A stretch of 64,000 bases of DNA from the IMG/VR virus record IMGVR_UViG_3300035703_000003; one strand, given 5' to 3'. The translations under genes and the position numbers were made by a program. Below, piece by piece: positions 1,779 to 59,554 of the stretch. This DNA comes from a virus. Its lineage: Duplodnaviria; Heunggongvirae; Uroviricota; Caudoviricetes. Under the pieces are notes generated by a model, which saw only the letters and a program-made list of their open reading frames with translations, did not search any database and was not told where the DNA came from. Within the stretch, counting starts at the first letter, position 1, and each line of letters begins with the position of its first letter.

Positions 1779-2969
1779 TTAATTTAACGGCAATTCGGGA
1801 TTCGGTGTTGTGAAGTTCTTTTTACGCATTACTGTTTTAGCAACTAAGTCTAGCACTTGACTGTGTGAATCCCAATTTAACACAAAAGGAACGTTAATAT
1901 CAGAACGCATGTCCTTGATAACAGCTTGTGCATCAGGACCCATTTGTGCAATCTTTTTACCATAATTAATATACGTGTCTTTGAATAAAATTGCAAGTTC
2001 TTTTATTGTGATTTGTTTCATGTTTCTTTCATCGTTAACACGGTCAAGGAAGTGACGTGTAAATTCTACGTCAATGCCTAACTTTCTAAACAGTTGGTCT
2101 AGATACTTTTCTAGTGTGTCTAACTGAACTTGTGTAATTTGCGGATTGTCTTCTTCATTTATGCCGTATTTGCTTACATATAGTTTTTCTAATTCACGTG
2201 GACTTAATCCAGCTGCGAAACTGTTTGCGATACGGAATGCATAATCACCTAACGAATGTCTTTCGCCCTTGCTTTTTACAAGTCTATGCATTGCTTCTAG
2301 TGCTGCATTGATTAGTTTTTCTTTTGCTTTTACGTTATATTCTTCTCTGTTCATTTCGCTTACATCTCTCACTGTTCTGATGCTACCATCATGGTTTACG
2401 AAATATGCTGAAAATTTCACATTAGGATATTCTTGTTGTAGTTTGTTAAACACTTTCAAGTTAGTCATACTATCGTCATACATTCTAACACGACCGTATT
2501 TTCCCGTATCCAAATAACGTCTTACAAAAACAGCTTTTTTCTCTGCAGGTATTGCATTACTTCTAATATTACCCGCTCTATGCACATGTATTAAGTCTAT
2601 ATTAATACCATGTTGTCTAAATGTATCTAGGAAAAGATCTTTGTCATCGAAATCTTCTCTTGCAGTTAACATAATAACTTTACTATCGCCTGCGTTCTGC
2701 AATATAGCATTTAGTTTTGCTATCATTGGTTTCATAGGCTCGCTTTCTTTATTAAACTTCTCTGCATTTCTGAATTCGCCAAAGTCAAACTCTTCGCCGG
2801 GCTGCAATTCATAATTGTTGAATTGTTGATTGTCTAATGTTTTTACTACATTACCATCCTTTACTACTTTTATCTTAGCAGTAGTATGGAATAATGTATC
2901 ATCAATATCAAATATGGTTAATCCTAAGTTAGAATCACCATAAGCCTCGAAAAGTTCTTTTAATCTCAT
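1779..2969 (-). CDS. Tagged multidomain putative virion protein: HAD phosphatase, small helical domain, possible BECR-fold RNase-like domain
   Basis: Starts MRLKELFE; FDIDDT, LTAR and YDD HAD motifs; C-terminal FTRHFLDR...KTVMRK. Confidence 0.65.
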   Translation of the reverse strand: MRLKELFEAYGDSNLGLTIFDIDDTLFHTTAKIKVVKDGNVVKTLDNQQFNNYELQPGEEFDFGEFRNAEKFNKESEPMKPMIAKLNAILQNAGDSKVIMLTAREDFDDKDLFLDTFRQHGINIDLIHVHRAGNIRSNAIPAEKKAVFVRRYLDTGKYGRVRMYDDSMTNLKVFNKLQQEYPNVKFSAYFVNHDGSIRTVRDVSEMNREEYNVKAKEKLINAALEAMHRLVKSKGERHSLGDYAFRIANSFAAGLSPRELEKLYVSKYGINEEDNPQITQVQLDTLEKYLDQLFRKLGIDVEFTRHFLDRVNDERNMKQITIKELAILFKDTYINYGKKIAQMGPDAQAVIKDMRSDINVPFVLNWDSHSQVLDLVAKTVMRKKNFTTPNPELPLN

Positions 2970-2982
2970 TTATCTAAATCCT

Positions 2983-3882
2983 TTAACGGCGTGTTGTGTT
3001 TGATGGCGGTGTCAACGGTCTAGATGTGCCGCCAGGTCTTGCGGCTTGACCTGGACCTGCTACTGTTCCGCTTGGATTGAATCTCGGAGTTCCGGGTAAT
3101 GGATTTGGATTTATTGTTCCCCCAGGTCTTGCGGCTTGACCTGGACCTGCTACTGTTCCGCTTGGATTGAATCTCGGAGTTCCGGGTAATGGATTTGGAT
3201 TTATTGTTCCCCCAGGTCTTGCGGCTTGACCTGGACCTGCTACTGTTCCGCTTGGATTGAATCGTGTAGGTGGTACATTACTGCTAGCTGGTGGTCTTGC
3301 TGCGTCTAAGCCATCTTGATAACCACGTCTACGTTGTAATTCTGTGTTGCCGTCTCCTCGCCCGCCTGTTGCTGGACTAGCTGCTGGCATACTACCCTGG
3401 GCGCCAACTGTTGGTCTTGCTCCGCCTTGCGCTCTGTTTAACGCAGACATAGTTTGATCACCGGCAATTCCGTCTACTTGTAAACCAAAATCTGTTTGAA
3501 ATTGTTTAACCGCGGCGGCAGTTCTTGGACCAAATTTTCCATCTGCTCCGGTGTCTCCAAGATCATAACCTTTGTCTATCAACATTTGTTGAAGGCCGCT
3601 TACATCAGAACCAGACGAGCCACGTCTTAGATTTGAAGTAGTTGTCCCAGGAGCTCGTACACCTGTGGGTGCTCCACTAGTCGATTGATCAGGTCTAGTT
3701 GGTTGTCCCCGAGTTATAGGCCCGCTAACTTCTTGGCCTGGTCTAGCTGGTAATCCTCTGAATACAGGCCCGCCAGGTCTTGCACTTTGTCCTGGTCCAG
3801 CCACTGTTCCGTCGGGATTAAAATTCGGAGTTCCCCTGCCGGCAGGTAATGCTGGTCTTTCAAATAAATCTTTCAATCTCAT
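2983..3882 (-). CDS. Tagged Pro/Gly-rich protein with PG_binding_1 domain
   Basis: Starts MRLKDLFE; LQQMLIDKGY..GADGKFGPRTAAAVKQFQ..GLQVDGIAG. Confidence 0.8.
   Translation of the reverse strand: MRLKDLFERPALPAGRGTPNFNPDGTVAGPGQSARPGGPVFRGLPARPGQEVSGPITRGQPTRPDQSTSGAPTGVRAPGTTTSNLRRGSSGSDVSGLQQMLIDKGYDLGDTGADGKFGPRTAAAVKQFQTDFGLQVDGIAGDQTMSALNRAQGGARPTVGAQGSMPAASPATGGRGDGNTELQRRRGYQDGLDAARPPASSNVPPTRFNPSGTVAGPGQAARPGGTINPNPLPGTPRFNPSGTVAGPGQAARPGGTINPNPLPGTPRFNPSGTVAGPGQAARPGGTSRPLTPPSNTTRR
3032..3263. repeat. Intragenic 90-bp tandem repeat, about 2.6 identical copies (30-aa unit PGTPRFNPSGTVAGPGQAARPGGTINPNPL)
   Basis: ccaggtcttgcggcttgacc recurs at 3032, 3122 and 3212; diverged copy near 3772-3835. 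Confidence 0.95.
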
Positions 3883-4118
3883 TTTGTTTTTTTCTCCCGG
3901 ACCAGATCGTCCTTGTATTCTTCTATGTAGTATTCTAGTGATTTATCACCACTACATATTTCAAAGTTTTCATTATTTATTGTTTTGCCTCTTATAAGAT
4001 TTTTAGTTTTTTTGTCAATACTCTTAACATGTATTACCATGTCCTTATCCTGATGCTTATAATAAATTATATGCTGCGGATTAAAGTATCTCCAAATCTT
4101 TTTAAAAAACAATTTCAT
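3879..4118 (-). CDS. Hypothetical protein
   Basis: ATGA-type overlaps with both neighbours. Confidence 0.6.
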   Translation of the reverse strand: MKLFFKKIWRYFNPQHIIYYKHQDKDMVIHVKSIDKKTKNLIRGKTINNENFEICSGDKSLEYYIEEYKDDLVREKKTK

Positions 4119-5527
4119 TTCTCACGACCTGCTTTCATATTAGCAAGCCAGTGTGCCATACGCTGCTTTTCGCCTGAACTATTTTTAGCTGTTTTTCGCA
4201 AATCACTAACACTGGCTTTGGTATTTACACCCATACGCTTTGCCAGACCTTTGCGCCCTGGATTTTTACCATCTGCAAAGTTTTCATTTGTTTTTTCTAC
4301 AGGGAAATATGCTTTAATAGTTTTACCCATACGTTGCGCTGCGGCTGCACGATGGTTGCCATCAATTACACTGTACTTACCGTCACTAAACTGTGGTCCT
4401 ACAATAATTGGTGCGCTTAGGTCAACACGATGACTGTAGTCGATATCTACAATACGATCAAATGGATCATCATAGTCGAAGAATTCTTCCTCACTTGGGA
4501 ACATGTCTGGGGTAAAGTTTCCAAGTTGCCAATCATGAGCTAAGATGAACCGATCCATGTCTTTGTTCATACCAGCATCGTGATGCATACCTCTGAAGAT
4601 TTTCAGCATTTCTTTGCCAGATTCTTCAGCTAATCCTTCTCTAGCCGCCGCTGCTTTTTCATCACTAGTATCGCCGGTAACCTTGTATGTTTTACCGTTT
4701 ACACTAAATTCTTTTTTACCTGCTTTGATAGCATTCATACGTGCATCAGTAAATGGGTTTGATTCGTTAATATTGTCTGATAATAGATTAACAATTTTAG
4801 GCAATAGAGACTGATTCCTTGTAGCTTCTGGCAAGTCGCTATCTTTCATTGGTCTAATGCCTTTTATTTTTACATGCTCATTCTTTTCAAAACGTTTAAT
4901 AAACTTCTCAACGGGCAATGGGCCGTCATAGTCAATTAATGTGTTTCCAAGTTTAACTGCAGCGTGATCTGCGTTGCCACGATCATTAATAAGAACCACT
5001 ATATCTCCACCGTGTATTTTTTGTAATGCTTGTGCTACTAATACACATCCACCATCAAACGGACCACAATCTTCGGGTTCTAAAATGTCATAAATGTTTT
5101 CTTTTGCTTCATTAGTAAGATCATGTGCAACCTTAAGTGCTGCTGGACCTTGTGGATGTCTTGGATTGATACTAACAACATCGCCGTTCATAAGATCACT
5201 GACGCTGGCACTCTTGCCTATTTTGTCTAACAGTTGATGTAACTTATCCTCAGGATCATAACCGTTTGTCTCGTATCCTAGTTTACCACGCACTTCAGTT
5301 CGCTTGCCTGTTTGTTTGTTTAAAATATGTAGGACTAGCATACCTGCACGGTTGTCACGCTCCAGTTGTAACATGTAACTATTGCCACTGCTTTCTTTAA
5401 GATAAGGTAAACTGAACCACAGCTTAAACCAATCGTCTGTTCCTGGCTTTACTTTCTTTTCACGCTCGATGTCACGCAAACGCTTGCTTGTATGACTAAT
5501 ATTTTCTGATATTTCGTTTATTTTCAT
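4115..5527 (-). CDS. Tagged polyvalent protein with a Cys-His-Asp (papain/transglutaminase-like) domain and a ParB/Srx domain
   Basis: Starts MKINEISE; GGCVLVAQAL..DHAAVK..IDYDG; PIIV..YSVIDGNHRAAAA. Confidence 0.65.
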   Translation of the reverse strand: MKINEISENISHTSKRLRDIEREKKVKPGTDDWFKLWFSLPYLKESSGNSYMLQLERDNRAGMLVLHILNKQTGKRTEVRGKLGYETNGYDPEDKLHQLLDKIGKSASVSDLMNGDVVSINPRHPQGPAALKVAHDLTNEAKENIYDILEPEDCGPFDGGCVLVAQALQKIHGGDIVVLINDRGNADHAAVKLGNTLIDYDGPLPVEKFIKRFEKNEHVKIKGIRPMKDSDLPEATRNQSLLPKIVNLLSDNINESNPFTDARMNAIKAGKKEFSVNGKTYKVTGDTSDEKAAAAREGLAEESGKEMLKIFRGMHHDAGMNKDMDRFILAHDWQLGNFTPDMFPSEEEFFDYDDPFDRIVDIDYSHRVDLSAPIIVGPQFSDGKYSVIDGNHRAAAAQRMGKTIKAYFPVEKTNENFADGKNPGRKGLAKRMGVNTKASVSDLRKTAKNSSGEKQRMAHWLANMKAGREK

Positions 5528-5889
5528 TTCGCCAGACCTAAGTTAAACAATGTATTTGTTGTGCTAGTATTTAACAGTTTTGGCTTGCCGTCGCCTCCGA
5601 AAAACTTTTTAGCTTGACGCTCAGTTTCACCGGGCTTAACATCGACTGTAGTATTAACACCAGGAACAATTTTACCATCTTCATCTACACGCTTGCCACG
5701 CTTACCGTAAGCACCGCCTGCATACCACTCACACCATCCGTTTGGGTCTATGTTACCTGCAACTGCACTACATTTGTTAGGATCTCTCCACATTGTGCAG
5801 TTAATACATTTTTGTCCGTTCTTAGGATCAGGCTGATAACCTGCTTCAGCCTTAGACCCTTTCCCTTCAAATAGCTCATGTATTCTCAT
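5524..5889 (-). CDS. Tagged protein with high-potential iron-sulfur protein (HiPIP)-like domain
   Basis: Starts MRIHELFE; YQPDPKNGQKCINC-x8-CSAVAGNIDPNGWC, the four-Cys small HiPIP pattern. Confidence 0.75.
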   Translation of the reverse strand: MRIHELFEGKGSKAEAGYQPDPKNGQKCINCTMWRDPNKCSAVAGNIDPNGWCEWYAGGAYGKRGKRVDEDGKIVPGVNTTVDVKPGETERQAKKFFGGDGKPKLLNTSTTNTLFNLGLAK

Positions 5890-7082
5890 CTTGGTCCTAC
5901 TCCCATTGCCGTTGGCGGTGTTCCAGTTGATGGTTTAGGTTTAGGAGGAGTGATAGGCTTTGGTGCAGACTTGGGGGGAGTTAATCCGGTCCCTGTTCTA
6001 TCTTGTGCGCCCATCGGTGTTGGACTTCCTGACCCTGTAGTTAGTTTAGGTATATTAGTCGGAGTAGTTGGGGCCACTCTCGGTGTTGGACTAACAGGTC
6101 TAGTAGGTAAACTTACGTTGTTAAAGATTTCTCGCATAGCACTTAATGTTTGCACGCCTGCTATACCATCAACTTGTAGACCGTAATCTTGTTGAAACTT
6201 TCTTACCGCTGCAGTTGTATTCCCGCCATAACGACCGTCGACTCCCTGATCGCCTACAGTATATCCTAATGTTGTAAGACCTTTTTGTAAAGTTTTAACA
6301 CTGTCTAATGGAACACCTTCTGCTCTGTAATCTCTTTTAAGATTTATTGCTCCACTAGGACCTGGCAACTTACTAACATCAATTTTAGGGATAACTTTAG
6401 GTGGTATAACGTTTACTCTAGCAGGAATACTTGTAAATGGATTTGGAACGGCATTCGGGGGAGTTAACTTGGGACGTTCTAAGTTCGGTGCGGACATAGT
6501 AGACACTGTTGTTCTAAACGCAGATGGTGATGTATAATTTGGCCCAGCTGTAGTTAATGCTCTATCTAATGTATTATATCCTGCTGATAAGTTTGCATAT
6601 CCATCTGCACTGTAATTAGGATCAGTGCGACGCCATCTAATATAGTTGTCTCCTAATACTTCTGCTGCAGTGTTAGGGTCAATATCAGGATTTCCTAAAA
6701 ATTCGGTTGCAGTTCTACGATATGACGGCTCGTTTTCCATTTCATATCTAACAAACTTTGCTTGTGCATCTAATGTTTCTTGTCCGGGTATAAGATTTCC
6801 GCTATTATCTATCCGGCCTTGGTCGTTCATAAATCTCATAAATGAATCATGACGTGGTCCTTGCCAGCTAATCATACCTGCATTGCTAGCACGATTGTAT
6901 GGATCTGTATGCGTTCCATACAAATATCTGTCTTGAAAACTATTTTCTCTATTAACCTCTGCAGTAAGAGCTCTTGCTTGAGCATCACTAAATCCTGCAT
7001 TAGTAAATGCATTATAAACGCCCAATGCGTTTGCTTCACGACTAGTTAATTCTCCTGCTTCGAACAGTTCTTTTAATCTCAT
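5886..7082 (-). CDS. Tagged virion peptidoglycan hydrolase: tail-lysozyme-like domain, PG_binding_1, Pro-rich tail
   Basis: Starts MRLKELFE; AQARALTAEVNRENSF..GMISWQGPR..LDAQAKFVRYEM; VDGRYGGNTTAAVRKFQ..GLQVDGIAG. Confidence 0.75.
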   Translation of the reverse strand: MRLKELFEAGELTSREANALGVYNAFTNAGFSDAQARALTAEVNRENSFQDRYLYGTHTDPYNRASNAGMISWQGPRHDSFMRFMNDQGRIDNSGNLIPGQETLDAQAKFVRYEMENEPSYRRTATEFLGNPDIDPNTAAEVLGDNYIRWRRTDPNYSADGYANLSAGYNTLDRALTTAGPNYTSPSAFRTTVSTMSAPNLERPKLTPPNAVPNPFTSIPARVNVIPPKVIPKIDVSKLPGPSGAINLKRDYRAEGVPLDSVKTLQKGLTTLGYTVGDQGVDGRYGGNTTAAVRKFQQDYGLQVDGIAGVQTLSAMREIFNNVSLPTRPVSPTPRVAPTTPTNIPKLTTGSGSPTPMGAQDRTGTGLTPPKSAPKPITPPKPKPSTGTPPTAMGVGPR

Positions 7083-7086
7083 TTTA

Positions 7087-7722
7087 TTATCCTGCTAGTA
7101 TAGTTAATAGTTGTAGTATTGCTTCTGGATGCATCGATTGTCTTGGTGTAGCTAACAGTTGAATTTCTGTTCGCATTTTGTCTGCGTCTTCTGGACTTAC
7201 TCCACGGCTTTCTAGTTTGTCGATAAGATTGTTAATTTTATTTAAATCAATCGGGAGTGGTGGTTGCTCTTGTTCTCCTGCTTCTGTTGCAAAGGATCTT
7301 AATTTTCTTGCTATTTTAGGGTCTCTTAGTAATCTTAACGCTTTTACTCCTAGTTGGCCGACACGGCCATCGCTTATTCCCAATACATTTGCTATTTGTG
7401 TATTTGTCATAGGATTATTAAATGGTTCAATTCCAAACTGTGCTTTAAGTATTAGTGCGTATCGGCGTGGTAATTGATCTATTGCTGCATGTATTTCTTT
7501 TGTTAGTTCTTCACGATTTACTGTATCGAATTGGTCAGCATCATAGCTACCGGTGGGGAAATCAACTTGTGTGCCTTTAACAGTAATGTCTCTTTTACTA
7601 ATACTTTTACTGTTAGGCACTCTGCCCCCGATAGTAGTGTTGCGGTATGTTTCGCTGTCTGGATTGTATAACGCCATTACCTGCTTATCACTAAATGTTT
7701 CTGATAAATCTCTTAGTTTCAT
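7087..7722 (-). CDS. Tagged protein with a stand-alone RpoD-like sigma70 region 4 HTH
   Basis: Starts MKLRDLSE; LPRRYALILKAQFGI..MTNTQIANVLGISDGRVGQLGVKALRLLRDPKIARKLRSF aligns to the RpoD C-terminus. Confidence 0.8.
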   Translation of the reverse strand: MKLRDLSETFSDKQVMALYNPDSETYRNTTIGGRVPNSKSISKRDITVKGTQVDFPTGSYDADQFDTVNREELTKEIHAAIDQLPRRYALILKAQFGIEPFNNPMTNTQIANVLGISDGRVGQLGVKALRLLRDPKIARKLRSFATEAGEQEQPPLPIDLNKINNLIDKLESRGVSPEDADKMRTEIQLLATPRQSMHPEAILQLLTILAG

Positions 7723-8276
7723 TTTTTATATTGTCCCAAATATTCAGCTACTAAGTCAAAGAAAGGTTTACCATCAATCATAGTATCGGCAGATACACCT
7801 GCAGCATCTGCAAATGCTTGTTTGTCTCCCATTGCAACCGCTGTTCTTAATGCAGTTGCACTACTTAATCTTGGTGTTGGCACTTGTGTTATTTTAGGGA
7901 AGTTATAACCACCATGTGCGCCCTCTTTGCCATTATATTGCTGTAATGTTTTTAAAACCCAATCTTCGTCGGTATAGATCCTCAATTCAACATCGCCGTG
8001 TTTTTGATAAATTTCGTTTGCAAGTGTAAGCCAGCTTTGACTAGGTGCAATATGCTTTGCTACTTCTGGCCAAATAGTTTCCATTGCTTTTATTTTTACA
8101 TCATATGGTAACGGATCTTTTGGACCTTGTGTAGATTTGTTTGTGCCAACATACCAAGCAGGATTTTCACTAGCCATTTGCCATGCAGCTTTATGACCTT
8201 TATGAGGAGGATTGAATCGTCCAAATATTAATCCTACACTATTAACGTTTGCTTCAAATAATTCGAATAATCTCAT
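7719..8276 (-). CDS. Tagged HxGH cytidyltransferase/NMNAT-like nucleotidyltransferase
   Basis: Starts MRLFELFE; FGRFNPPHKGH, KDPLPYDVK, SSATALR. Confidence 0.8.
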   Translation of the reverse strand: MRLFELFEANVNSVGLIFGRFNPPHKGHKAAWQMASENPAWYVGTNKSTQGPKDPLPYDVKIKAMETIWPEVAKHIAPSQSWLTLANEIYQKHGDVELRIYTDEDWVLKTLQQYNGKEGAHGGYNFPKITQVPTPRLSSATALRTAVAMGDKQAFADAAGVSADTMIDGKPFFDLVAEYLGQYKK

Positions 8277-8303
8277 TTTACTGTTTCCTTGTCAACCTTG
8301 TCA

Positions 8304-8660
8304 TCACCAAGCCCTGCAACTCCAGTATCTTGCTTTAGTCTTAGGCCCAGGATTATCGCAATTGTGTCTTGCACGGAAACTACGGCGACGTGCTGGGTTT
8401 GATTTTTTAATACGCATGTTTGGATCACCAAAGTTTACTTTTTTAACATTTCCTGTGCCAGGATCTTTTACATAAACTTTGAATTTTTTTACATCGCCTT
8501 GCATAGGCTTGTTGAGCTGCACATTGCGCCCTTGATATTCGGCTTCGAAGAGACCATCTTCGTCATATGCTAAGTAGCCAAATTCTTCGTGAAAATCTTG
8601 ATTATCATCTAACGTGATTTCGTTTTCACTATTCTCGGTTATAAGGTCTGAAAATTTCAT
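8304..8660 (-). CDS. Tagged conserved basic phage protein (DUF6321-like)
   Basis: Starts MKFSDLITE; KKVNFGDPNM..RRRSFRARHNC..ARYWSC. Confidence 0.6.
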   Translation of the reverse strand: MKFSDLITENSENEITLDDNQDFHEEFGYLAYDEDGLFEAEYQGRNVQLNKPMQGDVKKFKVYVKDPGTGNVKKVNFGDPNMRIKKSNPARRRSFRARHNCDNPGPKTKARYWSCRAW

Positions 8661-8664
8661 AAGA

Positions 8665-8708
8665 ACACCCTCGGTAATACTTTAATATAGTATTTAGCCC
8701 GAGGGTGT
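8665..8708 (-). promoter_or_regulatory. SD-sequestering hairpin containing a TAAATA late-promoter motif
   Basis: acaccctcgg (8665-8674) is the inverted repeat of ccgagggtgt (8699-8708); TAAATA at 8691-8696 on the minus strand. Confidence 0.6.
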
Positions 8709-13805: not shown

Positions 13806-14165
13806 TTAGGTTTCGTCGCTGCTTGATCTAGTGCTAGTGTATGCTTGTGAACCATAGAACGCTGCAACAATTGCTGCTACTGAAACGAAATATGTTGGTG
13901 CCATATCTCCTAATATACCAGGTGCTGCATCTAGTCCTAGCCAATTTGCTCCTATAACTGCCGCTGGATATAGTAGCATACCGAACAGTGCAAACCATGC
14001 CATGTTGCGTTGTGCATCTTCACGCTTGTCTTGGTTTTCAATTTGTATCATTTTTTCCTGTGCTGCGATTTCAGAATCTGTAACCACACCATCACCGTCA
14101 ACATCAAATGCTTCGTATTTTGATCCTGACTCTAGTGTCTTTGGTCCTCTTGGTGCTCGTGCCAT
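13806..14165 (-). CDS. EF-hand two-TM membrane protein (possible holin)
   Basis: DVDGDGVVTDSE canonical EF loop followed by two TM helices. Confidence 0.6.
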   Translation of the reverse strand: MARAPRGPKTLESGSKYEAFDVDGDGVVTDSEIAAQEKMIQIENQDKREDAQRNMAWFALFGMLLYPAAVIGANWLGLDAAPGILGDMAPTYFVSVAAIVAAFYGSQAYTSTRSSSDET

Positions 14166-18618: not shown

Positions 18619-19317
18619 TTACGCTTCGCTAAACAATTCGACTTTTGTGGTTTTACGAATATCGTTTTTGTATATCATATGTATTGTGCATAAGTCTTCG
18701 TAATTTTTCAAATAAACAGATGCAGCTATACGCCAAGGCATGTAAGCAGAACCAAATATACTAACAGGTGAGGATTGTGAGGATTTAAAATAATAATCGT
18801 ATGATGAAAACCCGTTACTGAACTTATAACTTCCTTCTTCAAAGTTCTCTGTTATAAAGTCTCTGAAGTTGTCAATAAAATCCATACCTTCTGATCGATA
18901 ACAAACTATATCTACTTTATATCTATACAAGTTATAGTATAATTTATTTTTATAGATAACATTAATGTCTGCTAACATTGTGTCTTGTTGTTTTTCAGAC
19001 ATAGGTCCAGTGATATGTTCGACAAAATTCCAACCCACTTCATTGGCAATTTTAAATACATCGTCGGCAGTTTTCAAATAAACGTTAAAGTATGTATCTG
19101 ATCTTATCCTATATTCTATACCTGCAGATTTTTTCATAAACTTTCGCAATTGGCGCTGCATCTTAATAATATCATCGTTTGCAACACCAATACGACCGCC
19201 GTCCACTATCCAATAGCCAGACAAACTAAGCCTGTATGGGAATTTATTATACCAGACCTCTTGCGAGATCTGGTAATTTTTATGTGTCTTAAGATGTTCT
19301 AACGCAGAGTGTGTCAT
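18619..19317 (-). CDS. Hypothetical protein with two internal repeats
   Basis: WYNKFPYRL/YYNLYRYKV and VYLKTADD/VYLKNYED duplications. Confidence 0.65.
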   Translation of the reverse strand: MTHSALEHLKTHKNYQISQEVWYNKFPYRLSLSGYWIVDGGRIGVANDDIIKMQRQLRKFMKKSAGIEYRIRSDTYFNVYLKTADDVFKIANEVGWNFVEHITGPMSEKQQDTMLADINVIYKNKLYYNLYRYKVDIVCYRSEGMDFIDNFRDFITENFEEGSYKFSNGFSSYDYYFKSSQSSPVSIFGSAYMPWRIAASVYLKNYEDLCTIHMIYKNDIRKTTKVELFSEA

Positions 19318-21526
19318 TTTCTAGGACCAATTGAACTGTTGTAATATTGTCACCAAACAGTAATTCTTTAGCAAGCGGCTTTTTAACTTTTTCGTTAATT
19401 AACCGGGCCATTGGTCTAGCGCCCATACTTTCAGTGAACCCATTGGTAGTAAGCCATTCGAGAGCATCTTCATCGAATGTAAATTCAATGTTACGTGGCT
19501 TAAGCATATCGTCTAGTTCCTTTAAGAACTTAATGGTTACATTATGCATTAGCTCTTTGTCTAGTTTGCGGAATGTAACAATTGCATCGAGACGATTACG
19601 GAATTCTGGACTAAAGAAACGTTTTACTGCTTCGTCACTTGCAGACGTATTTGTGTTGTTTCCAAATCCAATAGTGTTACGTTCTGCATCACGGGCACCT
19701 AGGTTACTAGTAAGGATAAGAATAGTGTTTCTTGCACTTACTGTTTTACCTTCACTGTTAGTAATCATACCGTTATCCATAAGTTGTAGCAACACATTGC
19801 TTACGTCTGGATGTGCTTTTTCAATCTCATCTAGCAGTAGAATACAGTTTGGATTTTCTTCTAGTTTGTTTACAAGAAGACCACTACCTTGACCACCTTC
19901 GCCATAACCTACATACCCAGGAGGTGCACCGATTAGTTTAGCAACAGTGTGCCGCTCTTGATACTCGCTCATATCGAAACGAACAAGAGGCATAGTCATT
20001 GCTGTACTAAGTTGTTTTGCAGTTTCAGTTTTACCTACACCGGTTGGGCCTGTAAATAGGAAACAACCGATTGGCTTGTTAGGATCTTTAAGTCCTGCTT
20101 TTGCAATATAGATAGCATCTGCAAGTCTTGTTAGTGCTTCATCTTGACCAAACACTTTTGTTTTAAGTGTAGCTTCAATATTGATAGGCTTTTCTTTTTT
20201 GTATTCGCTGTCTTTGGTAAGAACAAGCTGGTCAACAGGAATACGTGTTAGTTTGGCTACTTCAAAACGAATATCATCTAGTTCGAGAACATGCTTACGC
20301 TTATCCATCGGCAATAGCTTTTGTCTAGCTGCGGCTGCATCAAGAGCATCAAATGCCTTATCGGGTAATTGCCTGTTGTGCCAATATTGATGTGTAAGAT
20401 CTACAGCACCGTGCAATGCATCTTTTGTGTATGTGATTTCGTGGAATAGTTCGTATGACGGAATAGCATTTTCTACAATACGTTTTGCATCTGCTACACT
20501 TGGCTCGGGCACATCGACTTTGTAAAAACGTCTTACAAGGGCCTTGTCCTTCTCGAAGTGTTCACGATACTCGTCGTATGTAGTAGACCCAATGCAACGT
20601 AGCTTACCCTTTTGTAGGGCAGGTTTGAGTAGGTTTGCAACGTCCATGTTGCCGCCGCCTGCACTACCTGCACCCATAATCATATGAATTTCGTCGATAA
20701 ACAAAATTGCATCGTCACGGTTTTCTAGAACGTCTAGCACTTCTTTAATACGTTCTTCGAAGTCTCCACGGAATTTTGTGCCTGCTAGTAATGCACCAAT
20801 GTCTAGTCCGTAAATTGTGTGATCTTTAATAACATCAGGAACATTGTCCTCATTGATAAGATGTGCAAGACCTTCGACAATTGCAGTTTTGCCTACACCG
20901 CTTTCGCCAACAAGAATGACGTTATTCTTTTTACGACGAGCAATAGTCTGGACTAGTTGTTCTAATTCATTTTCACGACCAATAATCGGATCAACAATAC
21001 CATCTGCAGCTTGCTCGTTTAAGTTAACGCAAAATTTACGTAGCAGTCGATCACCTTTAATCGGCTTTGCTTTTAAGTCAACTTCGTCTGCAGTAGGTTT
21101 GTGTGTATCGCTAATATAACCCACAAGCGAGTCACGATTAATGCCATAGTTGCCTAATAGGTAAACTGCAGGGCTACTCGACTCACTCAAAATGCTGATA
21201 AGCAAATCACGTGGATCTAGTTTTTGCCTTCCGTTAAACAGTGCTTGTGTGAATGCACGATTGAATACACGCTCTAGCATAACTGTTTTTTTTGGCTGAA
21301 CGTTTTCTTCGTTAGGTAAACTATCTACTTCATTTTCTAGGTAGGTTGTTAATGCAGTTAGAATTACTGATGCATCTTGATTAAAATCTGCCAAGATATC
21401 TTGAACTTCATCTGTATCTAGCAAGATTGCAAGCAAGTGTTCTAACGTAACATATTCGTGTTTTAGGTCTTTTGATAGAGCAAATATACGTTCTACGAGT
21501 TGTTCAATTTTGTCATTTTGCGACAT
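19289..21526 (-). CDS. clpA: ATP-dependent Clp protease ATPase subunit ClpA
   Basis: HEYVTLEHLL N-domain; two AAA modules (GESGVGKT, GPTGVGKT); IGF ClpP-docking loop; no ClpB middle domain. Confidence 0.93.
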   Translation of the reverse strand: MSQNDKIEQLVERIFALSKDLKHEYVTLEHLLAILLDTDEVQDILADFNQDASVILTALTTYLENEVDSLPNEENVQPKKTVMLERVFNRAFTQALFNGRQKLDPRDLLISILSESSSPAVYLLGNYGINRDSLVGYISDTHKPTADEVDLKAKPIKGDRLLRKFCVNLNEQAADGIVDPIIGRENELEQLVQTIARRKKNNVILVGESGVGKTAIVEGLAHLINEDNVPDVIKDHTIYGLDIGALLAGTKFRGDFEERIKEVLDVLENRDDAILFIDEIHMIMGAGSAGGGNMDVANLLKPALQKGKLRCIGSTTYDEYREHFEKDKALVRRFYKVDVPEPSVADAKRIVENAIPSYELFHEITYTKDALHGAVDLTHQYWHNRQLPDKAFDALDAAAARQKLLPMDKRKHVLELDDIRFEVAKLTRIPVDQLVLTKDSEYKKEKPINIEATLKTKVFGQDEALTRLADAIYIAKAGLKDPNKPIGCFLFTGPTGVGKTETAKQLSTAMTMPLVRFDMSEYQERHTVAKLIGAPPGYVGYGEGGQGSGLLVNKLEENPNCILLLDEIEKAHPDVSNVLLQLMDNGMITNSEGKTVSARNTILILTSNLGARDAERNTIGFGNNTNTSASDEAVKRFFSPEFRNRLDAIVTFRKLDKELMHNVTIKFLKELDDMLKPRNIEFTFDEDALEWLTTNGFTESMGARPMARLINEKVKKPLAKELLFGDNITTVQLVLENDTLCVRTS

Positions 21527-21585: not shown

Positions 21586-22416
21586 TTAGTTAAAAACATC
21601 ACGCAAAGTTTTATCTAAGTCTTCTTCTGTTAAGCTAGGTATAATAACACTAACTTCTATATATAGATTTCCGTTGGGACTATTGCGTTGAGGCAAGCCG
21701 CCCTCTGGTATTCTAAGTCGTGTTCCTGTCTGTGTTCCTGATTTTATATGTAGTTTTAGTTGACGGTTGTCAAGTGTATCTACCACTTTTTCTGTTCCCA
21801 ACATTGCTTCTTTTAGCGAAAGTCGGATTGGTAGAACTACATTGTATTCTTCTACTCTGAATTTTGCATGTGACTTAATTTGAAACGTAACTACAAGGTT
21901 ACCTGGTTTACCTTGGTAAGTGTTATCACCAAACCCTTGATATCTTATTTGTGTTCCGTGAGTAACGCCCTTAGGTATTTCGATAGTTACTGCCCTTTGT
22001 GTTCCGTTTGGTAGATTTATGTTTAGGTTTTTCTTAGCGCAGTTGAACACATCTTCTAAATCCACACTGTATGTAATATTTATATCTTGGTTACGTGAAT
22101 TCTGTTTAAAATCAGTAAAAGGATTTCTGCCACCAAAGTGTTGTGCAAACAAGTCATTAAAATTTGCAAACGGGTCTGCGTCGGGACGCCTTGATTGATA
22201 GTTGCGAAATGCTTGTTCGGACGCTTGTTCTTCGTTGAACTTTTCTCTAGCATTAGCATCTTTGATACTATCATATGCTCCGTTTATTTCTGCAAACTTT
22301 TCGTGAGATCCTCCTTTATCAGGATGATACTCTTTTGCAAGTTTACGATAGGCAGCTTTAATTTCAGCATCAGACGAAGTCTTGCTAACGCCCAATACGC
22401 TATATGGATCGGTCAT
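21586..22416 (-). CDS. DnaJ/CbpA-type co-chaperone (no Zn finger)
   Basis: J domain with HPD; DnaJ C-terminal domains. Confidence 0.9.
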   Translation of the reverse strand: MTDPYSVLGVSKTSSDAEIKAAYRKLAKEYHPDKGGSHEKFAEINGAYDSIKDANAREKFNEEQASEQAFRNYQSRRPDADPFANFNDLFAQHFGGRNPFTDFKQNSRNQDINITYSVDLEDVFNCAKKNLNINLPNGTQRAVTIEIPKGVTHGTQIRYQGFGDNTYQGKPGNLVVTFQIKSHAKFRVEEYNVVLPIRLSLKEAMLGTEKVVDTLDNRQLKLHIKSGTQTGTRLRIPEGGLPQRNSPNGNLYIEVSVIIPSLTEEDLDKTLRDVFN

Positions 22417-57523: not shown

Positions 57524-58207
57524 CTATTCTCTGTTGCCAAGAAGACTTAGCAGCATTTGGAACAAGTTAATGAAATTGAGGTATAAGTTAAGTGCCATTT
57601 CGATGGCAAACTTAGCAGTTTCTTCTGCATTTAACCTACCACTTACAAATACACTTTTAGCAGTTTGTGTATCATACGCAGTAAGGCCAGTGAAAATAAT
57701 AACACCAATAATGCTTACAGCAAATTGTAAAGCACTTGATTGTAAGAAAATGTTCACAATACTTGCAATAATGATACCAATAAGTCCTACGATTAAGAAA
57801 CTGCCCCAACCGCTAAGATCTTTCTTTGTTGTGTATCCATACAAGCTAGCACCTGCAAAGGTTGCAGCGGTGATGAAGAATACTTGTGCAATACTTGCCG
57901 CCGTATAGATAGCAAAGATAGTGCTAAGGCTAACACCCATTACAGCAGTAAACACATAATAAAATGTTCGTGTAGCAGTGAAACTCCAATTGCGTCCTGC
58001 AAAACTGTAATAAAGAATCATACCGAGTGGTGCAAAAACAAACAGCCACATAAGTGGTCCCATAGATGCTAGCGCACCACTAGCATATGTAAAGTAAGCA
58101 ACTACGCCGCTAATAGCAAGGCCAACAGCGGTATAGTTGTAAAGAGCAAGCATAAATGTTCTTAGTGCATCATCATAGGCTGCACCTGTCATAACACGAG
58201 TGTTCAT
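57524..58207 (-). CDS. Bax inhibitor-1/YccA family membrane protein
   Basis: Seven TM helices; YGYTTKKDLS, FTGLTAYDTQ, ALNLYLNFINLF. Confidence 0.92.
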   Translation of the reverse strand: MNTRVMTGAAYDDALRTFMLALYNYTAVGLAISGVVAYFTYASGALASMGPLMWLFVFAPLGMILYYSFAGRNWSFTATRTFYYVFTAVMGVSLSTIFAIYTAASIAQVFFITAATFAGASLYGYTTKKDLSGWGSFLIVGLIGIIIASIVNIFLQSSALQFAVSIIGVIIFTGLTAYDTQTAKSVFVSGRLNAEETAKFAIEMALNLYLNFINLFQMLLSLLGNRE

Positions 58208-58618: not shown

Positions 58619-59554
58619 TCATTTATTAAATAAACTACTAACGCTTTCTTCATTAGAAATGCGTCTAATAGCTTCGCCGAACAATTCGCTAACTGTTACT
58701 GGGCGTATTTTTTTAGATTTTCCAGTATATAATATACTATCGCTAATTACTAATTCTGTCAAACAACTTTTGTCTATTTTCTGATCTGCAGTGCCACTCA
58801 ATACACCATGAGTGATATACGCTCTAACACTTAATGCGCCTGCATCCATAATTGCTTGCGCTGCATTACATAAAGTGCCGCCACTATCAACAATGTCATC
58901 TACTAGAATAGCATGTTTATCTTTTACATCACCTATCAAATTCATCACTTCGCTAACACCTGCTTTTGGTCTACGTTTGTCAACAATAGCGATATCGCCG
59001 TCAAACATATTAGCAAATTTACGAGCTCTAACAACGCCCCCTGCATCTGGACTAACAAACACTACGTTATCAACGTCGCCAATGTTACGTTTAATATCTC
59101 TTGCAAATACAATACGACTTGTTAAGTCATCTACAGGGATATTAAAAAATCCTTGTATTTGTCCTGCGTGTAGATCCATTGTTAAGATACGATCTGCACC
59201 TGCAGTGGTTATCAAATCTGCAACTAATTTTGCTGTAATAGGTGTTCTGCTTGCGCTTTTACGGTCTTGTCTTGCATAACCAAAGTATGGAATAACTGCA
59301 GTAATTCTTTTAGCACTACTACGTTTAGCAGTGTCTATCGTAATTAGCATTTCCATTAAATTATCATTTACTGGACTAGAGGTGCTTTGTATAATAAACA
59401 AATCTTGGCCTCTAATATTTTCTTGAACTTCTATACAAATTTCGCCATCGGCAAAACGTTTAAGGTCTACGGATACTAAATCCGAAAAGCAGTGTTCAGA
59501 TACTGCTTTTGCAAACGGCAAGTTGCTATTACCGCTAATAAGTTTTAATGTCAT
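58619..59554 (-). CDS. prs: Ribose-phosphate pyrophosphokinase
   Basis: [49 protein letters not shown]. Confidence 0.95.

Follow-up and report, generated by a model that had tools for sequence, protein, structure and literature searches.

A 64,000-nucleotide stretch of viral DNA (IMG/VR record IMGVR_UViG_3300035703_000003; hereafter the window) encodes a small protein that consists in large part of region 4 of sigma-70, the domain that in a housekeeping sigma factor reads the -35 box. The open reading frame lies at 7087–7722 on the minus strand, coordinates that proved exact, and encodes a 211-amino acid product in which residues 65–147 are sigma-70 region 4 by both sequence and fold. The reading that we favor, and to which we give about an even chance, is that this region 4 protein would be made late in infection, packaged in the phage head, trimmed by the prohead protease and ejected into the cell, where it would engage a host partner of sigma region 4, most likely the β-flap of RNA polymerase (RNAP).

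A region 4 domain without the remainder of a sigma factor

The Pfam profile Sigma70_r4 (PF04545) matched residues 80–133 of the region 4 protein at 30.7 bits (gathering cut-off 24.1) and reached 55–65 bits with its relatives. PHROG_351, annotated as 'RNA polymerase sigma factor', matched at 2e-8, and all significant phmmer matches in the Protein Data Bank (PDB) were to region 4 or the C-terminus of RpoD/SigA-type proteins, covering residues 65–145. When E. coli RpoD (from NC_000913) was searched against the whole window by tblastn, a single significant match was obtained, which paired RpoD residues 532–610 with nucleotides 7530–7291 (33% identity, E 7e-7). Two AlphaFold models of the protein each gave a confident helical region 4, with a predicted local distance difference test score (pLDDT) above 90 when an alignment of 78 sequences was supplied. 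The best Foldseek matches of the first model were region 4 chains of SigA (root-mean-square deviation 0.9–1.4 Å over 75–79 residues). Additionally, hhalign aligned the family profile to group-1 sigma factors with a probability of 99.9% (E 4.6e-31), with region 4 alone aligned.

The domain ends in the C-terminal tail of group-1 sigma factors, which is present here as PKIARKLRSF and fits the pattern LRHPSRS..LRSF. In the alignment, LRDPKIARKLRSF is the window counterpart of the RpoD C-terminal tail. Region 2 and region 3 were found neither in the protein, in which Pfam and hhalign each recognized region 4 only, nor elsewhere in the window, whatever the frame, nor in the loci of relatives, as searched with RpoD by tblastn and with phmmer. 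These results bear out much of an earlier note on this DNA, which had proposed that the central ~75 amino acids match the sigma-70 C-terminus, that KALRLLRDPKIARKLRSF aligns to the RpoD C-terminus as an RpoD-specific tail, and that regions 1.2–3 are absent; a miss by the Sigma70_r4 profile would have counted against that proposal, and the profile matched.

Thus, the protein belongs to the sigma-70 region 4 family by profile and fold but does not qualify as a sigma factor, since it has no region 2, and with regions 1–3 missing it cannot act as one. It shares with region 4 of RpoD and SigA the fold, the hydrophobic core, the helix-turn-helix, the C-terminal tail and, in the family consensus, the recognition helix. 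It differs from them in lacking regions 1–3, in the addition of a conserved N-terminal peptide (N-peptide) that is not sigma-like, and in the loss of -35 contact residues within the window's own clade. The top PDB and NCBIfam matches were of the RpoD/SigA type, with MzaA marginally higher. MzaA, a sigma-like protein of the MZA defense system and the top NCBIfam and PADLOC match, was considered and set aside: since its match is confined to region 4 and scores about the same as RpoD, we treated it as generic region 4 similarity.

The N-terminal tag resembles capsid-targeting sequences of phage T4

The region 4 gene is one of eight co-oriented genes (Table 1) that start with a common tag, M-K/R-x-x-D/E-L/I-x-E. 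The eight tags read MKFSDLITE, MRLFELFE, MKLRDLSE, MRLKELFE, MRIHELFE, MKINEISE, MRLKDLFE and MRLKELFE, and the pattern was not matched at any gene start of the window outside this block. From 8660 downwards, the first four genes encode a small protein, an NMNAT-like nucleotidyltransferase, the region 4 protein and a lysozyme with a peptidoglycan-binding domain; these are followed by genes for a HiPIP-like protein, a ParB-like multidomain protein, a peptidoglycan-binding protein and a PseT-like HAD/kinase protein. Beyond the tag, the tagged proteins are unrelated to one another. Lysozyme, peptidoglycan-binding, ParB-like and PseT-like domains are types that have already been proposed to occur in injected phage proteins (PMC5512222).

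In phage T4, the capsid-targeting sequence of internal protein IPIII is MKTYQEFIAE (PMC8442874). Once the protein has entered the prohead, such a tag is removed, and the remainder stays in the head (PMC8442874, PMC3012670). Reading the T4 genome, we found similar starts in Alt (MELITELFDE), gp24 (MAKINELLRE) and gp22 (MLKEQLIAE); the T4 record annotates Alt as packaged, and gp24 and gp22 as cleaved or degraded by the gp21 protease. By sequence, the tags in the window resemble these T4 N-termini in kind, down to the same L/I-x-E ending.

A syntenic block is found in a 226-kb relative (L001), in which a 305-amino acid structural-looking gene is followed by tagged genes that include the nucleotidyltransferase and the region 4 gene, with overlapping stop and start codons. 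The source of the window, which is part of a 313-kb metagenomic contig, is a giant T4-like aquatic phage. Its gp44 clamp loader is 33% identical to T4 gp44 (tblastn 7.5e-30), and other T4-like genes in the window encode RNA ligases of the RnlA/gp63 and Rnl2 types and the PseT-like protein. In tblastn searches of the window with T4 proteins, gp44 was the sole match, and cultured phages (INPHARED, by megablast and tblastn) gave no match to window DNA or protein.

The surroundings of the block were also inspected for transcription signals. Sigma-70-type promoters are no more frequent within it than expected by chance, and no terminator-like site was found on its coding strand. A hairpin lies between the 305-amino acid structural-looking gene and the tagged block, and its loop holds CTAAATAC (8690–8697), which resembles a T4-type late promoter. 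Motifs similar to TAAATA also occur upstream of structural-looking genes at 13806, 14275, 14690 and 18427. The T4 late-promoter consensus itself, TATAAATA, was rejected as an enriched element, with 4 matches compared with 6.3 expected. Searches for head genes were made in IMG/VR records of distant relatives, which are fragmentary (one is 26% complete): Peptidase_S77 came up blank in records where the controls were silent too, and Gp23 gave one sub-threshold match of 14.6 bits.

A conserved N-peptide follows a predicted cleavage site

Between the tag and region 4 lies the N-peptide, a hallmark of the family. Across 78 sequences its key residues (Y19 91%, Y26 92%, P36 98% and D45 93%) are as conserved as the region 4 core. 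AlphaFold2 modelled it as coil, with a pLDDT of 56–69 even when the 78-sequence alignment was used, and we therefore rejected the idea that the N-peptide folds back on region 4. The possibility that it is a remnant of sigma region 3.2 was likewise rejected, as hhalign of the family profile against the C-terminal halves of group-1 sigma factors aligned region 4 alone. Two hints in that direction were recorded: a Sigma70_r3 feature match in the ESM Atlas of 0.85, under the 0.9 line, and NCBIfam alignments of FliA and SigC that reach into the N-peptide.

A predicted protease site of the form [ILVFMTA]xE lies no more than 16 residues before the invariant tyrosine in 64 of the 78 family sequences, and in 50 of these 64 the predicted cut falls exactly 9–10 residues before it. 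The residue after the predicted cut (P1') is alanine in 33 family sequences. In the window protein, a cut after LSE(8) would leave 10 residues to Y19, matching the family pattern. From the junctions and the alignment counts, the conserved unit can thus be described as a protease site, 9–10 residues, the motif YNPD(G/S)xTYR(G), a spacer containing P36 and D45, and region 4; the window version of the motif is YNPDSETYR. A strict form of the tag, M[KR]xx[DEQ][ILFVM], starts 42 of the 78 parent proteins, and many of the remaining parents may be metagenomic fragments that miss the true start.

The unit recurs alone and as a bead in polyproteins

Word-index and profile searches yielded 27 close and moderately distant homologues, and a profile built on the core unit matched 23 representatives at E<1e-30. 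Clustered at 50% identity, the best 150 representatives include at least 74 clusters with the whole unit. The parent proteins of the 78 family members range from 123 to 1,510 amino acids, with the unit standing alone or as one bead of a polyprotein. For example, an 835-amino acid polyprotein (L004) contains four EDTQIDE junctions and one EDTMDE, and in an 808-amino acid polyprotein (L010) there are eight junctions of the type (V/I)AE, most of them GVAE with G behind it. In a third relative (L005), a nucleotidyltransferase is fused to the unit across GVAE↓G (the arrow marks the junction). In all three, the unit starts directly after a junction (..IDE↓AHPAQQISVYNPDS.. or ..GVAE↓AHPNQQIARYNPDG..).

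Compared with L001, the ratio of nonsynonymous to synonymous divergence (dN/dS) is 0.22 for the whole gene and 0.17 for region 4, and the gene is under purifying selection. It is also intact in several independent samples. These observations bear on the view that the gene is a decaying, functionless fragment of a captured rpoD, a view prompted by the retention of just the last ~80 sigma residues and by the degenerate recognition helix of the window's clade. The dN/dS values, the dozens of clusters below 50% identity that share conserved boundaries and the added N-peptide, and the intact copies in several samples make decay hardly credible.

Three side observations concern related proteins. First, proteins with 7–11 tandem sigma-70 region 4-like repeats (589–3,581 amino acids) were recovered as P0036, P0042, P0046, P0060, P0061, P0073, P0086, P0109 and P0142; because they lack the tag and the YNPD N-peptide, they were set apart from this family. 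Second, in P0016, P0018–P0020, P0023 and L007/L008 (residues 240–300), region 4 is followed by an alanine/glycine-rich hydrophobic or glycine-zipper segment, for which Pfam Gly-zipper_Omp scored 22.4 bits (short of its cut-off), so a neighboring bead may be membrane-associated. Third, cargo proteins built as beads on a string are encoded at 4115–5527 (-) and 1779–2969 (-) of the window, at 3215–5722 of L004 and at 2–2425 of L010. They carry repeated (I/L/V)xE↓A/G junctions (EDTQIDE↓A, GVAE↓G), and their beads include ParB-like, HAD/PseT-like and DUF6934-like domains.

The C-terminal bead is a separate module

Behind region 4, the window protein carries a C-terminal helical bead that is preceded by ATE↓A; in relatives the corresponding junction is (V/I)GE↓A. 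A module 76–98% identical to it ends tagged proteins that have no region 4 (P0024, P0026 and P0027), and it was absent from the IMG/VR relatives. Synonymous divergence (dS) from L001 is 2.8 (saturated) in the bead compared with 0.26–0.36 in the rest of the gene, indicating that the gene is a mosaic. As judged from these comparisons, the C-terminal 64 amino acids are a separate, swappable bead, which would probably be released as a separate piece.

The hydrophobic end of this bead (..AILQLLTILAG) raises another reading, in which the protein is a late co-activator resembling T4 gp33, with region 4 on the β-flap tip and the tail on the sliding clamp. T4 gp33 does hold the flap-tip helix in place of sigma region 4 and has its clamp motif on a linker (PMC7892883). 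Consistent with this reading, T4 gp43, gp55 and gp33 end in LDFL-type tails (..TNTLDFLL in gp33), the window protein has a conserved hydrophobic tail, and clamp-loader genes are present in the window. However, blastp with gp33 and gp55 gave no match at E≤10, and the gene lies among cargo genes without an early-type promoter. The C-terminal module is missing from most of the family and occurs on unrelated tagged proteins; it stands behind a protease-type junction, and its dS points to a separate history. Given this junction and distribution, the module is probably cut off and the clamp-tail idea is unlikely; a co-activator of this kind is, in our estimate, very improbable.

The recognition helix is canonical in the family and altered in the window's clade

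The -35 bases are contacted in sigma-70 by R584, E585, R586, R588 and Q589 (E. coli numbering). The window protein keeps two of these five, R586 and Q589, and carries the changes R584D, E585G and R588G; further changes are E591G, K597L and H600D. The close clade comprises 11 sequences with 70–85% identity to the window protein, and within it region 4 varies most at the helix (0.76 bits compared with 0.24–0.39 elsewhere); the tail PKIARKLRSF is nearly invariant there. The consensus of the 78 family sequences reads S-x-E(52%)-R(78%)-I/V-R(70%)-Q(88%)-I-E(89%)-A-K-A-L-R(91%)-K-L-R/K-H-P, with family-wide conservation of E585 (52%), R586 (78%), R588 (70%), Q589 (88%), E591 (89%) and R596 (91%), and in several relatives the helix equals that of the housekeeping sigma except at three positions. 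The earlier note had singled out the replacement of TRERIRQ by SDGRVGQ. The replacement is real in the window but does not define the wider family, which is canonical; on the alignments, the alteration is derived, reflects relaxation in a single lineage and is no family signature.

Because most family members have a canonical helix, the family function probably uses the -35-reading face, and the window's clade is derived. Since that face has been lost in the window's clade, protein contacts, and not the reading of TTGACA, are the most likely mode of action of the window copy.

These features must be weighed together with the early promoters of the phage. The palindrome AAGANNTCTT occurs 15 times in the window compared with 1.7 expected, and seven copies sit in the spacer of strong sigma-70-type promoters, TTGACAtcc-AAGAnnTCTT-acacTATATTgtatatgtag, just upstream of small early-looking genes. 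By sequence, these promoters appear to form an early regulon in which an operator-like element separates the -35 and -10 boxes. Given TTGACA early promoters and a conserved DNA-reading face, the main rival to the favored reading is binding to DNA at -35-like sites, or to a partner that recognizes this face. In its DNA-binding form, the cargo would use its helix-turn-helix on the TTGACA-type -35 boxes of the incoming phage DNA, where it would flag early promoters, shield them or recruit RNAP to the entering end of the DNA; in the window's clade, specificity would have become different or looser, and the new site might be the AAGANNTCTT spacer palindrome.

Several points speak for such a role. 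The exposed -35-reading and basic-patch residues are conserved across clusters with less than 50% identity, the early promoters that hold the palindrome have the consensus TTGACA, T4 internal proteins are embedded in the packaged DNA (PMC3012670), and the hydrophobic or glycine-zipper segments that follow region 4 in some relatives fit placement at an entry site. However, the window's clade replaces three of the five base contacts, the replaced positions are the most variable among close relatives, unlike a conserved new specificity, and a single region 4 is a monomeric reader of half-sites, whereas the motif is palindromic. No evidence was found that the region 4 protein binds the AAGANNTCTT promoters, a possibility that the earlier note had raised. 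We consider this DNA-binding role unlikely, yet the remaining alternatives (decay, the late co-activator, and the cytoplasmic regulator treated below) are less likely than it.

A proposed route into the head and into the cell

Head packaging with processing is the best reading of the protein because three features occur together: the shared tag, its likeness to the T4 capsid-targeting sequence, and the repeated (I/L/V)xE↓A junctions of polyproteins. According to this proposal, the protein would be made with the other tagged products of the block, probably late, and, like the T4 capsid-targeting sequence, the tag MKLRDLSE would direct it to the prohead core. The prohead protease would then cut after L-S-E(8), and probably also after A-T-E(147), to give a unit of ~139 amino acids (residues 9–147) consisting of the N-peptide and sigma-70 region 4 with its housekeeping tail. 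This unit would remain in the head and be ejected into the cell with the DNA. There, free region 4 would occupy the partner that normally holds region 4 of sigma-70, most likely the β-flap tip of RNAP, and the N-peptide would make a second contact in the host cell. Late synthesis, packaging, trimming, retention and ejection are inferred here by analogy with T4, and the target from the role of region 4 in sigma-70; virion delivery, which the earlier note had put forward, is thus favored indirectly and is not an observation.

Docking of the protein with the E. coli β-flap (residues 830–1060) gave a result classed as 'weak support', with a score of 0.54 compared with 0.00 for the best of three controls. 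Of 80 solved complexes, 58 attained the mark for this class, as did 2 of 110 mismatched pairs; a score no higher than 0.60 was seen in just 7 of the 80 solved complexes and in both passing mismatches. Contacts were shared between docking runs to at least 37%, and the partner pLDDT was at least 59. Because complexes of sigma region 4 with the flap have already been solved, the pass may reflect memory of them and may show likeness only.

The same docking result would also suit an unpackaged late regulator acting in the cytoplasm, in which free region 4 competes for the β-flap and shuts off -35-dependent host and early phage promoters, an effect like that of AsiA by a different route, with the tag serving another role. 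The gene does lie in an apparent late transcription unit, and late shut-off of TTGACA promoters would be biologically sensible. The tag, on the other hand, is confined to a group of enzymes such as ejected cargo typically contains and is not found on structural or metabolic genes; repeated protease-type junctions flank the unit in polyproteins, an arrangement that a simple regulator would not need. We regard such a regulator as improbable.

Four considerations weigh against the favored reading of a head-packaged competitor for the β-flap. The DNA-reading residues are kept family-wide, and a pure flap-binding role leaves them unexplained; the conserved face points to DNA or to a partner that recognizes it. 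The early promoters of the phage have perfect TTGACA -35 boxes, and a delivered β-flap competitor is expected to hurt these promoters too. The assignment of late promoters depends solely on short TAAATA motifs. Lastly, the phage and its relatives are uncultured and are known here from sequence alone.

A bolder version, which we hold to be possible but doubtful, is that free region 4 is fired from the capsid and anchors on either the β-flap tip or -35 DNA, while the N-peptide, placed like the sigma 3.2 linker, enters the RNA-exit channel or another site on RNAP. Host RNAP would thereby be reprogrammed or blocked before phage expression begins, and the device would be widespread in uncultured T4-like aquatic phages.

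Relation to known phage systems

Phages are known to take over host transcription by means of small proteins made after infection that act on sigma region 4 or the β-flap (AsiA, gp33, gp39, P7 and ORF67), by an injected enzyme (Alt), or by injection of a whole polymerase (N4). T4 gp33 is not packaged and works together with gp55 and gp45. It is a small phage protein that sits on the flap-tip helix where sigma-70 region 4 sits (PMC7892883), and a similar site is proposed here; unlike gp33, the window protein is a true region 4 homologue and has no similarity to gp33.

The T4 internal proteins and Alt resemble the tagged proteins in having a short N-terminal tag ending in (L/I)xE, unrelated cargo behind it, and clustering at a plastic locus (PMC3012670, PMC5512222). 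With Alt there is also precedent for head cargo that targets host RNAP as soon as infection begins. In contrast to these, the cargo here would be a piece of sigma and not an enzyme or an inhibitor of restriction, and its packaging is proposed by analogy; moreover, many of the relatives are multi-bead polyproteins cut, as predicted, at repeated junctions, whereas T4 internal proteins are not. A further likeness is to phage polyvalent proteins: these multidomain proteins enter along with the DNA and are divided into their functional parts (Iyer et al. 2017, PMC5512222). These include ParB-like and lysozyme domains in late-gene contexts, as does the block in the window, but their processing is ascribed mainly to a built-in peptidase domain (PMC5512222), while the junctions here resemble prohead-protease sites. 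The catalogue of polyvalent proteins makes no mention of sigma (PMC5512222).

The T4 record annotates Srd and Srh as postulated decoys of sigma-70/sigma-S and sigma-32, respectively. They offer a conceptual precedent only, for a T4-type phage that makes a sigma look-alike: homology to Srd was not detectable (E 0.23 over 40 amino acids) and Srh gave no match. Later work reportedly ties Srd to activation of RNase E and not to sigma mimicry, and neither Srd nor Srh is known to be packaged in the head. We agree with the earlier note that the proposed route is distinct from that of AsiA/MotA; homology to gp33, gp55, Srd or Srh was not found. No description of Sigma70_r4 cargo in a virion or phage was found in the searchable literature. 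The region 4 module may thus be an undescribed one that recurs in many uncultured phages, with delivery like that of the T4 internal proteins and Alt and a site that is perhaps gp33-like.

If the proposal is true, it would constitute a fourth route of takeover, in which a piece of sigma serves as head cargo and acts at time zero. This route would differ from those of Alt, AsiA/MotA, gp33/gp55 and the N4 virion RNA polymerase, and the domain would be the first of a sigma factor to be delivered by a virion. The finding would also extend the list of known phage-delivered cargo by one domain and favor the idea that giant marine T4-like phages are equipped with a varied set of tag-addressed proteins. 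The presence of both canonical and lost -35 helices amounts to a natural experiment that separates DNA contacts from protein contacts. Additionally, a module of ~139 amino acids and a conserved RNAP make binding and in vitro transcription tests simple without the host.

Features and neighboring genes of the window

The positions of the features discussed above are collected in Table 1.

Table 1. Features of the region 4 gene and its surroundings in the 64-kb window.
Feature	Position	Strand	Basis or remark
Eight tightly packed or overlapping, co-oriented genes with tagged products	1779..8660	-	Common N-terminal tag
C-terminal helical bead, aa 148–211: AGEQEQPPLPIDL...AILQLLTILAG	7090..7281	-	Follows the A-T-E↓A junction; bead includes PLPIDL
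Sigma-70 region 4 domain with group-1 tail, aa 65–147	7282..7530	-	Pfam, PHROG, PDB, fold, hhalign
Recognition helix SDGRVGQLGV, aa 117–126	7345..7374	-	Alignment to E. coli RpoD
Conserved N-peptide, aa 9–64: TFSDKQVMALYNPDSETYR...P36...D45-I-T-x-K-G...Y60	7531..7698	-	Family hallmark; at the predicted mature N-terminus
N-terminal tag MKLRDLSE, aa 1–8	7699..7722	-	Resembles T4 capsid-targeting sequence; ends in L-x-E, a predicted prohead-protease site
Hairpin, 10-bp perfect stem ACACCCTCGG...CCGAGGGTGT, 24-nucleotide loop	8665..8708	-	Between the 305-aa structural-looking gene and the tagged block
Promoters with AAGANNTCTT in the spacer	26522, 29308, 29558, 31046, 50150, 51080, 51342	-	Palindrome between -35 and -10

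The tagged nucleotidyltransferase at 7719–8276 (-), which has a GRFNPPHKGH motif and resembles NMNAT or a cytidylyltransferase, always adjoins the region 4 unit. It is found beside the unit also in L004 (2028–3218) and in L005 (7428–9017), where the two are fused. This adjacency suggests either a functional link or mere co-delivery. A PRPP-synthetase-like gene at 58619–59554 hints at NAD or nucleotide salvage by the phage. Within the tagged block, the small protein encoded at 5524–5889 (-) matches the HiPIP iron-sulfur family (24.5 bits, cut-off 22) and is an unusual candidate for head cargo.

Elsewhere in the window, a large AAA+ protein of the ATP-dependent protease type is encoded at 19289–21526 (-) (PHROG_4871, 832 bits). 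The product of the gene beside it, at 21586–22416 (-), has an N-terminus (MTDPYSVLGV..) that resembles the J-domain of DnaJ. Lastly, the gene at 57524–58207 (-) encodes a YccA/BAX-inhibitor-like membrane protein of the FtsH modulator family.

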